The notes below the pieces were generated by a model. It saw only the letters and a list, made by a program, of their open reading frames with translations, was not told the origin of the DNA and searched no databases. A stretch of DNA of 64,000 bases, taken from assembly GCA_965199995.1 (NCBI GenBank), contig OZ241328.1, forward strand, positions 2,060,627 to 2,124,626, in the 5' to 3' direction. This stretch comes from Dehalococcoidia bacterium (GTDB taxonomy: Bacteria; Chloroflexota; Dehalococcoidia; Lucifugimonadales; UBA3495). The stretch's first letter is position 1; each line of letters starts with the position of its first letter. Shown one piece after another: positions 272-30,481 of this stretch. Both the position numbers and the translations under genes were made by a program.

Positions 272-372
272 CCCGCCTCTCTTCGTCATTCCCGCGAAAG
301 CGGGAACCCACGCGCTTCGTCATTCCCGCCTCTCTTCGCCATTCCCGCGAAAGCGGGAACCCACGCGCTTCG
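272..372. repeat. Tandem direct repeat (2 units, 53-bp period), each unit holding the hairpin core TTCCCGC-GAAA-GCGGGAA
   Basis: Units CCCGCCTCTCTTCG(T/C)CATTCCCGCGAAAGCGGGAACCCACGCGCTTCG at 272-319 and 325-372. Hairpin cores at 289-306 and 342-359. Confidence 0.9.
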
Positions 373-8926: not shown

Positions 8927-9059
8927 CTGCCCGCCTCGCAAGCCCTGACTCGCAGGGCAATCGCCTTTGAAATTTCAGACCCGTTACCCCTGCGGAAACA
9001 GGAGACCGGAAGGCGAAATTCTCTGAATTTATGCCTCACCGATATTCGATTCAGACCCT

Positions 9060-9109
9060 GGATTCCCGCTTTCGCGGGAATGACGGGGACAAGCTTCGCG
9101 GGAATCACG
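9060..9109 (-). repeat. Hairpin repeat element, inverted orientation, plus an adjacent partial copy
   Basis: 9063-9080 TTCCCGCTTTCGCGGGAA is the reverse complement of the core. The flank TGAC equals GTCA. A partial CGCGGGAATCAC lies at 9096-9107. Confidence 0.85.
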
Positions 9110-13369: not shown

Positions 13370-13584
13370 AACAACTCCTTATGACGGGAATAGCGTTTCG
13401 TACTCCCGCTTCGTATTCCAAAGATTCTTACGGCTGATAATGACGCCTGCCCCATCATAGCGCAACCGCCCGGCCATTGAAAAAGGCGGCGGCGTCATTG
13501 AAAATAGGCCACCGGGGTCAATGGACCACCGGGGCGCAAGATAAAAGAACCGGCATCTATGACCGAACCGACAGGAGGCAGCCT

Positions 13585-14703
13585 TTGGCGTTAGTAGGAA
13601 TCATCGCCAACCCGGCGGCGAGCAAAGACATCCGGCGTCTGGTGGCCCAGGGAAGGGTAGTGCCCGACTGGGAAAAAGTGAACATCGTCCGGCGGGCGCT
13701 TATGGGCTTGCAGTCGGTGGGCATCCAGCGCGTGCTGGCGATGCCCGACAGCTCCCACCTGGTGCAGCGCGCCGCCGATGATCCCCATCTGGCGATGGAA
13801 GTGGACTTGCTTCCAATGACTGCCCTATTCAATGAGGGGGACACCGTTCGCGCCGCGGCCGCCATGGCCCAGCAGGGCGTGAAATGCGTGATAACCCTGG
13901 GCGGCGATGGCACCAACCGGGCCGTGGCCAAAGGCTCCCGCGATATGGCCATGGTTGCCATATCCACCGGCACCAACAATGTCTTTCCCGTTATGGTGGA
14001 GGGCACCACCGCCGGCATGGCCGCCGGCCTAGTGGCCACAGGCGCGGTCTCTTTGGAACAGGCGGCCGTCCGAAGCAAGACCATCGCCGTCATGGTGAAC
14101 GGCGAAGACCGCGACATCGCCTTGGTGGACGTGGCCCTCTCCAAAGAGCGTTTCGTTGCCACCCGCGCCATCTGGGACATGAACACCATCTACGAAGTGT
14201 TTCTGACTCGCGCAGAACCTTCGTCCATCGGCCTGTCGTCCATCGGAGCACGACTGCAAGCGGTGTCCCTTACCGACGCCGGCGGCCTGCACTACAAAAT
14301 CGCGGACCTGCGGCAGATGCAGACCGAACCGGCAGAGGGCAGTCCGTCCCCCACGTCTACATCCCCGCCTAACCCGTTACCTTCGCCCGATTCGTCGTCC
14401 CCGCCTGACCCGTCATTCCCGCGAAATCGGGAACCTGCTGGCCCGGTCCAAGTTTATGTCCGCGCTCCCATCGCGCCCGGCTCGGTGCCGGTGGTAGGAA
14501 TCGAAGCATGGCAGCGCCTCGCCGACGGCCAGCGCCTTGCCGTCGAGCGCCGGCATTCCACAGTGGCGCTCGACGGCGAACGATCCTTCTCGGTGAACCC
14601 GGACAACCTGCTGGAAATCGAAATTCGGCGCGACGGCCCGCCCGTGGTCAGCGTGGAAGCGACTCTTGGCCACGCCACCGCCGCGGGACTGTTCCACGTC
14701 TAG
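13585..14703 (+). CDS. ATP-NAD kinase family protein (AcoX-like) carrying a Pro/Ser-rich insertion
   Basis: ITLGGDGTNRAVAKG motif. TTG start at 13585 follows an AGGAGG; the ORF track extends to 13477. The insertion is described separately. Confidence 0.6.
   Translation: MALVGIIANPAASKDIRRLVAQGRVVPDWEKVNIVRRALMGLQSVGIQRVLAMPDSSHLVQRAADDPHLAMEVDLLPMTALFNEGDTVRAAAAMAQQGVKCVITLGGDGTNRAVAKGSRDMAMVAISTGTNNVFPVMVEGTTAGMAAGLVATGAVSLEQAAVRSKTIAVMVNGEDRDIALVDVALSKERFVATRAIWDMNTIYEVFLTRAEPSSIGLSSIGARLQAVSLTDAGGLHYKIADLRQMQTEPAEGSPSPTSTSPPNPLPSPDSSSPPDPSFPRNREPAGPVQVYVRAPIAPGSVPVVGIEAWQRLADGQRLAVERRHSTVALDGERSFSVNPDNLLEIEIRRDGPPVVSVEATLGHATAAGLFHV
14411..14435 (+). repeat. Hairpin repeat element copy located inside the 13585-14703 CDS
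   Basis: CGTCATTCCCGCGAAATCGGGAACC matches the intergenic copies except for one base. It translates in frame as SFPRNREP. Confidence 0.85.
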
Positions 14704-20567: not shown

Positions 20568-20592
20568 CGTCATTCCCACGAAAGCGGGAACT
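20568..20592 (+). repeat. Hairpin repeat element copy with one stem mismatch
   Basis: CGTCATTCCCACGAAAGCGGGAACT lies between convergent genes. Confidence 0.8.
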
Positions 20593-21415
20593 AATCCAAT
20601 TCCTTGAAGCGGGCGTCCCTCCAGTTGAGGGCCGCCCTTAGGCCTTCCTCTGCCGCGACCGCGTTAAACTCTTCCTGTTCCGGGCTGGTGCTGGTGTCGA
20701 AGATGGTCATTAGCTCCAGATTTTGCGAAACGGCGTTGAGAAAGCCCATATTCTCCAAAGCCCGGTTCACGGCCACTTTAGTCAGCTTGATGCCGAGCTG
20801 CGACATCAGGCACATCTTGCGGGCCACCCGCTCACATTCCGCCATCAACTGGTCGTGGGGAACCACCCGGCTCACCAGGCCGATCCGCGCCGCCTCGTAG
20901 GCGTCCACGGTATCGCCGGTAAGCAACAGTTCCTTTGCCGCCGCGAGGTTCACGCTATAGGGCGTGATAAGCAGCGGCGGTCCAAAACCGGCCCGAATCT
21001 CCGGCTCCCCCAGCACAGCCCGGTCCGAAGCAATTTTCACATCGCACACCTGCACCAGCTCGCAGGCCCCGCCCAAAGCATACCCGTTCACTGCCGCAAT
21101 AACGGGCTTGGGCAGGTTCCAAACCTTCATAAATGTGTCTATCAGTTCCTGAAGATGCCCCCGCCACTGGTCAACGCTGCCGTCGCGGGGACTGGGGGAA
21201 CCCGGGTCCGGGTTGATGTCGAATCCAGCGGAAAAAGCCCGGCCCGCGCCGGTAATGATGGCTACGCGAACATCCGGGTCGGCCTCCACTACGGCCAGCG
21301 CATCCTGCAAGTCCGCAATCAGACCCGCATTCAGGGCGTTAAGCTTGTCCGGCCGGTTGAGCGTGATATAGGCAATAGCCTCCCGGCGTTCGTAAATAAT
21401 GTTATCCAATGCCAC
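20591..21415 (-). CDS. Enoyl-CoA hydratase/isomerase (crotonase) family
   Basis: 274 aa. ITLNRPDKLNA, ITGAGRAFSAGFD, AAVNGYALGGACEL. Confidence 0.85.
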   Translation of the reverse strand: MALDNIIYERREAIAYITLNRPDKLNALNAGLIADLQDALAVVEADPDVRVAIITGAGRAFSAGFDINPDPGSPSPRDGSVDQWRGHLQELIDTFMKVWNLPKPVIAAVNGYALGGACELVQVCDVKIASDRAVLGEPEIRAGFGPPLLITPYSVNLAAAKELLLTGDTVDAYEAARIGLVSRVVPHDQLMAECERVARKMCLMSQLGIKLTKVAVNRALENMGFLNAVSQNLELMTIFDTSTSPEQEEFNAVAAEEGLRAALNWRDARFKELD

Positions 21416-29029: not shown

Positions 29030-30481
29030 ATGCTGGATATGCTGATTAAGGGCGGACAAGTCGTTACTCCCTCAGGCGTCGGCAACTGGGATGTCGGGGT
29101 GGAGGGCGAGCGTATCGTCGCCGTGGCCCTCCCCGGCGTGCTACCGGAAGAAGGCGCCGCCATAATCGACGCCACCGGCAGAATCGTCGTCCCCGGCGGT
29201 GTTGAAGCCCACGTCCATGCCGCCGCCAACGTCCAGCCCGGCGCCAGCGAATCCGTGCCCGGCACCCCCAACGCCGGCCCCGCCGTCCACTCCCTCGGCG
29301 CCATCTGGGGCGGCACCACCACCGTCGTTGACTTCGCTCCCGTCCCCAGTGAGGGAGACCTCGCGGCCGGCATCCACGGCTTTATGACCGTCTGGCAAGG
29401 CAACGCCTATACCGACTACACCACTCACTGCATCTATCGCAACTCCAACTCCCCGGACTCCATCGCCCGGTTCCACGAGCTGGTGGAAGCGGGTTTCCCC
29501 AGCGTAAAGATTTTCACCACCAACATCCGACCGCCCGACGCCGAAGGAACCAGCCTTACCCCCATCGGCAGGATTGATACTGGCCGCCTCGGCGACTTGA
29601 TGGAGCAGATGCACCGCCACGGCGGAGTTCTCGCCGTCCACGGTGAAGACGACGAACTCGTCATGTACAACTATCTTCTGGCCCGCGAGCGCGGCCTGTG
29701 GGACTGGCACAACGTCCATCTCATTCACTCCAAGGCCGTCGAGGACCTCGCCTTCCGCCATATCGTGCGACTGGCCCAGCGCACCGGAGTCGGGATGTAT
29801 TTCGTCCATGTCACCGCCTCCGACGGGCTGGACGTCATCTCCGAGGCCCGCGCCGCCGGTATGCCCGTCTATGGCGAAGTCCTAACCCTGGCTCTATCCT
29901 TCGAGGCCGAGCAGTACAAAGAACCCGACGGCATGAAGTACCACACTTACCCGTCCCTCAAATTTGACCAGGACCGCACCGCCCTTTGGGACGGCATCAT
30001 GAAAGGCGACCTCTCTTTCACCGCCACCGATAGCAGCTTCACCACCTACATCGACAAGGTTGCCGGCACCAACGTCCGAGACATCCGCGGCGGAAACGTC
30101 GGTATCGAAATCCGCATGGGAGTAAACTACACTGAAGCCGTCGTCAAGCGCGGTATGCCCCTGGAACGCTACGTAGACGTAACTTCCGCCAACCCCGCCA
30201 AGCTCTTGGGAATGTACCCCCGCAAAGGCTGCATCGCCGCTGGCAGCGACGCCGACTTCGCCATCATTGACCCCACCTTCAAGAAGCCTCTCGAGCTTTC
30301 CGACCTACATGTGCGCGATTACAGCCCCTGGGAAGGCTGGGAAGTCGAAGGCTGGCCCACCACCGTTATCCTGCGCGGCAAGGTAATGGTGGACGGCGGA
30401 CAGTTGCTCGGCAGCCCCGAAGATGGCCGCCTCATCCTGCGCAAGGTTGATCAGTCCGTCCTCAACCGCCCCGCTTTCTAA
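29030..30481 (+). CDS. Dihydropyrimidinase / D-hydantoinase family cyclic amidohydrolase
   Basis: 483 aa. VVPGGVEAHVH, SVKIFT (carbamylated Lys position), HGEDDE, FVHVT, TDSS.. Confidence 0.75.
   Translation: MLDMLIKGGQVVTPSGVGNWDVGVEGERIVAVALPGVLPEEGAAIIDATGRIVVPGGVEAHVHAAANVQPGASESVPGTPNAGPAVHSLGAIWGGTTTVVDFAPVPSEGDLAAGIHGFMTVWQGNAYTDYTTHCIYRNSNSPDSIARFHELVEAGFPSVKIFTTNIRPPDAEGTSLTPIGRIDTGRLGDLMEQMHRHGGVLAVHGEDDELVMYNYLLARERGLWDWHNVHLIHSKAVEDLAFRHIVRLAQRTGVGMYFVHVTASDGLDVISEARAAGMPVYGEVLTLALSFEAEQYKEPDGMKYHTYPSLKFDQDRTALWDGIMKGDLSFTATDSSFTTYIDKVAGTNVRDIRGGNVGIEIRMGVNYTEAVVKRGMPLERYVDVTSANPAKLLGMYPRKGCIAAGSDADFAIIDPTFKKPLELSDLHVRDYSPWEGWEVEGWPTTVILRGKVMVDGGQLLGSPEDGRLILRKVDQSVLNRPAF

Follow-up and report, generated by a model that had tools for sequence, protein, structure and literature searches.

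The kinase-like gene and its loop

The window, by which we mean the whole 64,000-nucleotide stretch of DNA analysed here, belongs to a single-contig MAG of a marine member of the Dehalococcoidia (3.07 Mb, 60% G+C; hereafter G000). It contains a gene on the forward strand (13585..14703) for a COG3199-type NAD-kinase-like protein of 372 aa (P0001). The open reading frame runs from a TTG at 13477 to 14703, and an ATG at 13585 opens the peptide MALVGII. As all homologues begin with MALVGIIANP, we place the gene start at the ATG and not at the TTG. The original prediction had labelled this frame as NAD-kinase-like, and the label is correct. The N-terminus matches the Pfam family NAD_kinase (PF01513), overlapping with DAGK_cat (PF00781), and includes the motif GGDGT; the C-terminus forms a beta-sandwich. 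A Foldseek search with the predicted structure retrieved NAD kinases, DgkB/YegS lipid kinases and sphingosine kinase, and relatives of P0001 are named 'ATP-NAD kinase family protein' or 'predicted polyphosphate/ATP-dependent NAD kinase' in the databases. No match was found in a sequence search of the PDB with the protein.

Within the C-terminal domain lies a hypervariable loop (residues 241–291, DLRQMQTEP...PAGPVQVY; 14305..14457, forward strand), which we delimited using alignments, loop tables and a structure model. The loop comprises 51 codons in this gene compared to 19 in the basal form found in relatives, which amounts to 96 nt of extra DNA. The frame reads ...PAEGSPSPTSTSPPNPLPSPDSSSPPDPSFPRNREPAGP... 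through this region with no stop and no change of frame, and the sequences on either side align colinearly with those of all orthologues, so that the reading frame is indeed kept on both sides, as had been claimed from the sequence of the window. In an alignment of 144 homologues, P0001 retains 48 of the 48 invariant columns, including GGDGT. This conservation suggests that the enzyme is probably intact despite the insert.

The AlphaFold model, which used the 144-sequence alignment, reached a pLDDT of 85.6 and a pTM of 0.83. In this model, residues 246–289 are coil with a pLDDT of 43–56, located between the strands 234–239 and 290–293, and the 10-residue blocks flanking the coil have a mean pLDDT of at least 90. 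An initial model based on 31 close homologues was discarded, as its pLDDT was 49.6 and its C-terminal domain was too poor. The block is thus predicted to be an unstructured, low-confidence loop between two strands, which answers the question whether it forms a loop, and according to the model the insert is accommodated there without disturbing the fold of P0001.

A repeat copy at the end of the insert

The extra DNA ends in CGTCATTCCCGCGAAATCGGGAACC (14411–14435), a slightly decayed copy of a hairpin repeat that also occurs in intergenic DNA. This hairpin (14411..14436, forward strand; read as SFPRNREP) was recognised by a core search, by BLAST and by comparison with the NTS consensus. It is of the CGTC-1 REP or NTS type, consisting of a CGTC tag, an ATTCCCG stem, a loop and CGGGAAC. 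The tag occupies 14411–14414, directly before ATTCCCG, and the 18-nt core TTCCCGCGAAATCGGGAA is found at 14416–14433 on the forward strand. Relative to an intact element, the copy ATTCCCG-CGAAAT-CGGGAAC has lost the closing C-G pair (G>T, which also turns a Lys into an Asn) as well as the outer A-T pair (T>C), so that 6 bp of the stem remain. Its tail is CCTG, a partial fit to CYRG. Overall, the copy agrees with the published NTS consensus at 25 of 28 positions and is identical to the family consensus at 27 of 28 nt. When the region 14290–14470 was compared with the whole genome by BLAST, hundreds of matches of 25–28 nt at 96% identity were obtained, each with an E-value of about 1e-6 and all on 14408–14436. 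The claim that the DNA of the block ends in an intergenic hairpin element is therefore confirmed by the core and by these genomic matches.

Upstream of the hairpin, we distinguish about four degenerate 18-nt half-units (14340..14411, forward strand), each composed of tag, left arm and spacer and together read as SPSPTS/TSPPNP/LPSPDS/SSPPDP; those at 14358–14375 and 14394–14411 are recognisable. One of them, GTCGTCCCCGC, matches GTCATTCCCGC at 9 of 11 positions and lies exactly 18 nt upstream of the hairpin, with a chance probability of about 0.0017. Furthermore, TACATCCCCGCCTAACCC (14358–14375) and GTCGTCCCCGCCTGACCC (14394–14411) are identical at 14 of 18 positions at an offset of 36, a level seen in 174 of 200,000 background comparisons. 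Tandem Repeats Finder reported nothing on 14280–14480, and the statistics support no more than one or two of the upstream half-units. It had also been proposed that the upstream part echoes the flank of the repeat copy at 272–372. This holds in so far as there is one clear half-unit at 18 nt and a second one at 14/18, whereas the likeness of CCGTCCCCCA / CCCCGCCT to the 258–282 flank is generic to the C-rich half-units of the family.

The block could in principle be an ordinary Pro/Ser-rich low-complexity linker that resembles the repeat by chance. In line with this, Tandem Repeats Finder does not recognise most of the upstream block, which is too degenerate, and many homologues have a compositionally biased loop. 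Nevertheless, the near-complete match to the family consensus includes the non-palindromic CGTC tag and recurs in hundreds of genomic matches, the half-unit stands at the canonical offset, and no other protein among the 116 close homologues has the sequence. We therefore give next to no weight to a chance resemblance.

The beginning of the loop has a different origin. The peptide LRQMQTE (14308..14328, forward strand) derives from a second palindromic repeat that has decayed, as found by comparing codons with the related loci L013–L016, L024 and L027. The intact form of this repeat in relatives is CCCCTTCGACAGGCTCAGGGTGAAGGGG, translated as LRQAQGE(G), and the family is weakly represented in the window's own genome. 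We considered whether 'D[LV]RQ' represents frameshifted codons of the basal 'DGGI' and rejected this after hand translation, as the shifted frames give no LRQ and LRQAQGE is another palindromic repeat. Hence, in place of the ancestral loop, the gene has a composite in which a decayed 'LRQAQGE'-type remnant, degenerate half-units and the hairpin are combined. The view that the element was absorbed as a Pro/Ser-rich linker is essentially right, with the refinement that the 19-residue loop was replaced by this composite and not simply interrupted. As the ancestral loop was not cleanly interrupted, more than one event is needed. Looking by eye for direct repeats that flank the block, we found only ACCTGC (14306–14311 and 14433–14438), 127 nt apart; this spacing does not fit the length difference of 96 nt, and we thus regard the pair as a chance occurrence.

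Because the genome is a single-contig MAG, a repeat-mediated chimera or a collapsed repeat might have placed the element in the gene. A separate 7.7-kb ENA contig, however, encodes the same 372-aa protein (P0390, in the 90% cluster of P0001; 370/372 identical, 99%) with the whole insert, and one of its two substitutions lies inside the insert (SPPNP to SPHNP). A chimera is therefore very unlikely. An assembly artefact is further contradicted by the intact frame, by the flanks that are colinear with those of all orthologues, and by analogous inserts in relatives from independent assemblies. A scan of JGI metagenome contigs for the exact pattern of the junction found nothing.

The repeat family in the window and the genome

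Further copies of the hairpin are present at all four places in the window that the original prediction had named, with cores within one or two mismatches. They form an intergenic tandem pair on the forward strand (285..362; cores 289–306 and 342–359), an intergenic copy in reverse orientation (9058..9085, reverse strand; core 9063–9080) and an intergenic copy with two mismatches (20568..20595, forward strand; core 20573–20590). Together with the copy in the gene, the core thus has five matches in the window compared to 0.15 expected, and none of 100 shuffled sequences reached five. No Rfam family matched anywhere in the window.

Across the 3.07-Mb genome, we detected about 305 copies of GTCATTCCCGCGAAAGCGGGAA within three mismatches. 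The great majority carry the CGTC tag, and the family fits the pattern ATTCCCGC-GMAV-GCGGGAAT, in which an 8-bp stem begins with AT and encloses a 4-nt loop. Of the 305 copies, 224 have the loop GAAA and 263 (86%) a loop of the type GNAA; TCCA tails occur in 117 copies and CCCA tails in 48. Many copies form inverted, head-to-head pairs that are 63–72 nt apart, and some are organised in arrays (for example at G000 192191–192642 and 2248770–2249402). Furthermore, tandem half-units, each consisting of GTCATTCCCGC and about 7 nt, precede 47% of the copies; they number from 1 to 12 or more, and their period is 17–21 nt, most often 18. Comparing copy orientation to GC skew, we found an excess of forward copies in the first 1.25 Mb (87 forward and 42 reverse) and observed no clean replication-linked switch. 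Within the genus, the number of copies per genome ranges from 0 to 325; a control with the reversed pattern gave 0.

Variation of the loop among relatives

To place the insert in context, we compare the loop between orthologues. The 19-residue basal loop DGGIPEDGxxPExSDGQLY, located between GGLHYRIA and VRAPIAPG, is present in 66 of 116 close homologues (73–100% identity). Nearly all of the best 150 distant representatives (35–63% identity, about 325–345 aa) align in two separate parts, with residues ~242–290 left unmatched; the loop of distant orthologues comprises 11–20 residues. Other Dehalococcoidia genera have acidic or Gly/Ser loops of 11–44 residues with no repeat. The block is thus absent from most orthologues, as expected if it was acquired. 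The absence does not result from an absence of the repeat family, since the repeat-rich genomes G006, G022 and G015 still have the basal loop. An empty-site allele from the same species was not found. The records of related loci are Dehalococcoidia MAGs, some of them labelled SAR202; one contig is labelled TARA, and we read one bin label as sponge-derived.

The forward element occurs in the loop of the window's protein only among the 116 close homologues. In seven homologues the same loop contains the element reversed, and the DNA of four relatives' loci (including L013–L015) carries a perfect element in opposite orientation. The translation of this element is GLDSRFRGNDGG, with GNDGG half-units after it; its reverse-complemented DNA has the sequence ...GTCATTCCCGC half-units...CCGTCATTCCCGCGAAAGCGGGAATCCAAACC. 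We rejected an in-situ inversion of this reversed copy as the source of the forward copy, as a comparison by eye showed that, apart from the motif, they have neither half-units nor flanks in common. Being unique among the 116 homologues and sharing only the motif with the reversed copies, the forward copy is best regarded as a separate event. A different hairpin repeat, RPHPNPPPEGEG, occupies the same loop in 17 homologues. The different states of the loop intermingle on a tree of the sequence that flanks it; for instance, P0004, which has the reversed element, is the starred sister of P0005, which has the PHPNP element. Alleles with identical flanking protein and different loops have a DNA difference of about 7% in their flanks. 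Loop turnover is therefore not demonstrably fast, and we dismissed a very recent turnover on these grounds.

Perfect hairpins are kept inside the gene in some relatives, and the prevalence of GNAA tetraloops suggests that RNA-level structure matters for intergenic copies. The intragenic hairpin might hence have been co-opted, either as an mRNA structure (ribosome pausing or RNase processing) or as a flexible linker that alters oligomerisation or regulation of the kinase. The predicted RNA fold of the hairpin in the window's gene, however, has an energy of -9.9 kcal/mol (z -0.83), compared to -13.5 (z -3.36) for the intergenic copy at 282–313; the hairpin in the gene is thus weakened and no better than shuffled sequence. 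In addition, inserts vary in family, orientation and length between species, and most orthologues have no insert at all. We consider co-option improbable, and the insert would rather be neutral, or nearly so, for the enzyme.

In-frame copies in other genes and the search for a mobilising partner

The kinase-like gene is not the only gene of this genome with a translated copy. Copies in frame, flanked on either side by Pfam domains, occur in five further genes, namely mfd (GSRFRGNDGTSGNGGAGGNDG), a heavy-metal P-type ATPase (VPAFAGMTEGG...), a MiaB-like methylthiotransferase (3 x LPPSFP followed by SFPRKREP, in the linker that joins the UPF0004 domain to the radical-SAM domain), a family III CoA-transferase (HSREGGN) and cobA-hemD (GSRFRGNDGEERNDGEERDDG). 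Four of the five open frames of the element are in use, and the stop-containing frame (GFPLSRE*) is used by none of the five genes.

The MiaB-like gene is informative across relatives. Seven of them (G001, G002, G004, G006, G007, G012 and G013) are 13–23 residues shorter over the aligned region. In G014, G015 and G008, the element is present in the same frame beside an RPHPNP-type repeat, and G009 has a decayed copy. This series shows the path from a fresh insert to an anonymous Pro-rich linker. Moreover, the three repeat families of the kinase loop also co-occur in the MiaB-like linker.

We searched for genes that could mobilise the repeats. No match to a Y1/RAYT transposase (PF01797) was found in G000, and no IS110 transposase (PF01548) was found. 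For SsnA-like GIY-YIG proteins (PF01541), G000 contains only UvrC and one 110-aa UvrC-N-like ORF that has no motif within 1.5 kb. Likewise, no SsnA-like gene beside a motif was detected in the repeat-rich genomes G006, G008, G015, G019 and G022, whose only GIY-YIG matches were UvrC and unrelated ORFs lacking a motif within 1.5 kb. The absence of a partner agrees with the published view that CGTC REPs have no dedicated transposase (Di Nocera, De Gregorio & Rocco 2013, BMC Genomics 14:522, PMC3733652).

That two loops each contain several repeat families might be a sign of targeting rather than mere tolerance. The loop would then be an active landing pad, where several hairpin families insert adjacently or recombine, as proposed for Neisseria NIME arrays, such that the repeats themselves drive variability. 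More generally, disordered loops of housekeeping enzymes in this genus might be shared landing pads for at least three hairpin families (CGTC-1/NTS, RPHPNPPPEGEG and 'LRQAQGE'), which are inserted adjacently or swapped by repeat-mediated recombination. Several observations point in this direction: the kinase loop holds CGTC-1 in forward and reversed orientation as well as the other two elements, all three families meet in the MiaB-like linker, and the loop states are interspersed on the flanking-sequence tree. On the other hand, the loops of other genera vary between 11 and 44 residues without any repeat, so that tolerance alone explains much of the pattern. The differing alleles have also diverged in their flanking DNA, and no recombinase, transposase or Ssn nuclease was found. 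We therefore treat shared landing pads as a tentative and rather unlikely alternative. If true, repeats would actively generate protein-loop diversity in both orientations without a recognisable transposase or Ssn nuclease, which would point to a host-encoded or replication-linked mechanism of spread for orphan CGTC repeats.

Origin of the insert

Taken together, we propose that a member of the CGTC-1 REP family, with its usual upstream half-units, became coding sequence of the NAD-kinase-like gene in a variable, disordered loop of the beta-sandwich, a reading to which we assign a probability of roughly 0.88. The element would have entered a loop of the C-terminal beta-sandwich domain that is naturally variable and disordered. 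Insertion may be more or less untargeted, with purifying selection leaving only those copies that lie in tolerant loops and open frames. No frame of the forward element contains a stop codon, and its half-units here have an 18-nt (6-codon) period; hence, the gene stayed open. The inserted DNA would then be translated as a Pro/Ser-rich extension (...SSPPDPSFPRNREP...), and the element may subsequently have decayed neutrally by point mutation, by which the hairpin was weakened and the half-units were blurred.

Comparison with known repeats

The repeat belongs to the CGTC-1 REP family, which includes Neisseria dRS3 and RPE-6 of Rickettsia conorii (PMC3733652). Taken as a family, the copies of this genome share with it the CGTC tag, the 8-bp stem starting with AT, the 4-nt loop, the CCA tail, the head-to-head dimers and the lack of a dedicated transposase. 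In-frame intragenic CGTC and GTAG REPs have been described in known proteins, many of them encoded by DNA-repair genes (PMC3733652), and mfd is occupied in the present genome too. In contrast to the published cases, the host here is a Dehalococcoidia (Chloroflexota) MAG, and copies often have 1–12 or more tandem half-units with a 17–21-nt period, of which we found no description in the part of PMC3733652 considered. Furthermore, REP clusters and arrays are called rare outside Neisseria and Wolbachia in that text, whereas they are common in this genome.

The NTS motif CGTCATTCCCGCGMAVGCGGGAATCYRG is the single-stranded DNA target of SsnA, a GIY-YIG single-strand nuclease of Neisseria (Chenal et al. 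2025, Nat Commun 16:2388, PMC11893778). The consensus is identical to that of this genome, and in both cases there are hundreds of oriented copies per genome. An SsnA-like small GIY-YIG gene is reported for 81% of genomes with more than 200 motifs (PMC11893778); in contrast, searches of the present genome and of five repeat-rich relatives revealed no such gene flanked by the motif.

For the Rickettsia palindromic elements (RPEs), insertions that keep the reading frame of protein-coding genes were reported (Ogata et al. 2000, cited in PMC3733652). They are similar to the present repeat in being genome-wide palindromic repeats that are translated in tolerant loops of conserved genes, with orthologues that lack the insert and several affected genes per genome. 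They differ in that the unit here is a 28-nt hairpin with variable half-units, and that among sister species one and the same loop contains either orientation of the element or members of different families. RPE-1 is longer, at 100–150 bp.

In NIME arrays, dRS3-type hairpins with short spacers are described as intergenic (Bentley et al. 2007, PMC1797815). The arrays of this genome are comparable, whereas the copy studied here is a single unit within a gene. Other small repeats fit less well. The repeat shares with GTAG REPs and REPINs that it forms short GC-rich hairpins, often in inverted pairs, which are mostly intergenic and occasionally intragenic. GTAG REPs and REPINs are mobilised by RAYT tyrosine transposases; the tag here is CGTC instead of GTAG, and the genome lacks a Y1/RAYT gene. 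Unlike in MITEs, the only inverted repeat is the hairpin stem of 7–8 bp, there is no fitting target-site duplication and neither an IS110 nor a Y1 transposase accompanies the repeat.

As in-frame REPs and, earlier, Rickettsia RPEs have been described (PMC3733652), both the phenomenon and the family were already known. What appears to be new is the host lineage, the half-unit architecture that is carried into proteins and the repeated occupation of one loop, in both orientations and by members of three repeat families.

Implications

Our analysis provides a well-documented case, in environmentally abundant Dehalococcoidia, of selfish hairpin repeats that were turned into protein sequence, with the states before and after the insertion and the decayed state found across sister species. 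With these states at hand, the locus is useful for studying the spread of orphan CGTC/NTS repeats and the origin of disordered linkers. To our knowledge, there is no transposase for the orphan CGTC/NTS repeats. Translated repeats leave signature peptides, namely SFPRKRE, VIPAKAG, HSRESGN, DSRFRGND and PAFAGMT, and in the annotation of such MAGs these peptides should not be taken for domains or mis-assemblies.

In-frame copies and loop growth

Outside the window, in-frame copies of the CGTC-1 hairpin repeat were found in five more genes of the same genome (G000; positions 370115, 449034, 634887, 1302696 and 2696900), and Pfam domains flank each copy on both sides. The genes affected are mfd, a heavy-metal P-type ATPase, a MiaB-like methylthiotransferase, a family III CoA-transferase and cobA-hemD.

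In the relatives, two further families of palindromic repeats are read as protein in the MiaB-like linker (locus L103, genome G008) and in the loop of the NAD-kinase-like protein (loci L013–L018). The first reads 'RPHPNPLPEGEG' (DNA CCCTCTCCC-AGA-GGGAGAGGG) and the second 'LRQAQGE'/'VLSPSRG' (DNA of the CCCCTTCGACAGGCTCAGGGTGAAGGGG type). These two families and the hairpin repeat tend to adjoin one another.

The loop of P0045, a homologue of the kinase-like protein, reads AHPEDNGQAQDNATPQRSGSQPPVEDNGASQDNATPERSGGRLLY; here the basal loop looks to have been duplicated in tandem, with no repeat inserted. Such duplication is a second route of loop growth. The extra block of the window is itself flanked by ACCTGC on either side (14306–14311 and 14433–14438); this direct repeat is probably due to chance, since its spacing of 127 nt does not match the length difference of 96 nt.

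Repeat arrays and copy number

We observed arrays in G000 that resemble Neisseria intergenic mosaic elements, each with 4–11 hairpin copies at a period of 39–72 nt (29268–29626, 72413–72929, 192191–192642, 202703–203098, 205690–205980, 608032–608348, 1156539–1156828 and 2248770–2249402). Long spurious ORFs arise across these arrays, because the forward element is free of stop codons in every frame. At around 2911700–2912280, the 18-nt half-unit alone is repeated in tandem several tens of times, with one complete hairpin at the array end; the translation runs CPRHSR... and then PVIPAA.... Half-units are evidently able to expand independently.

At 1821597–1821836 of G000 (locus L098), an AT-rich patch contains a UvrC-N-like GIY-YIG ORF of 110 aa, followed by an ORF whose start is putatively DGQHR/DndB-like. 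As no hairpin copies occur within 1.5 kb of the GIY-YIG ORF, it probably belongs to a defence island rather than acting as an Ssn partner.

When counted as a 22-mer with at most one mismatch across genomes G000–G024, the hairpin varies from 0 to 325 copies among species of one genus, which implies recent bursts or losses.
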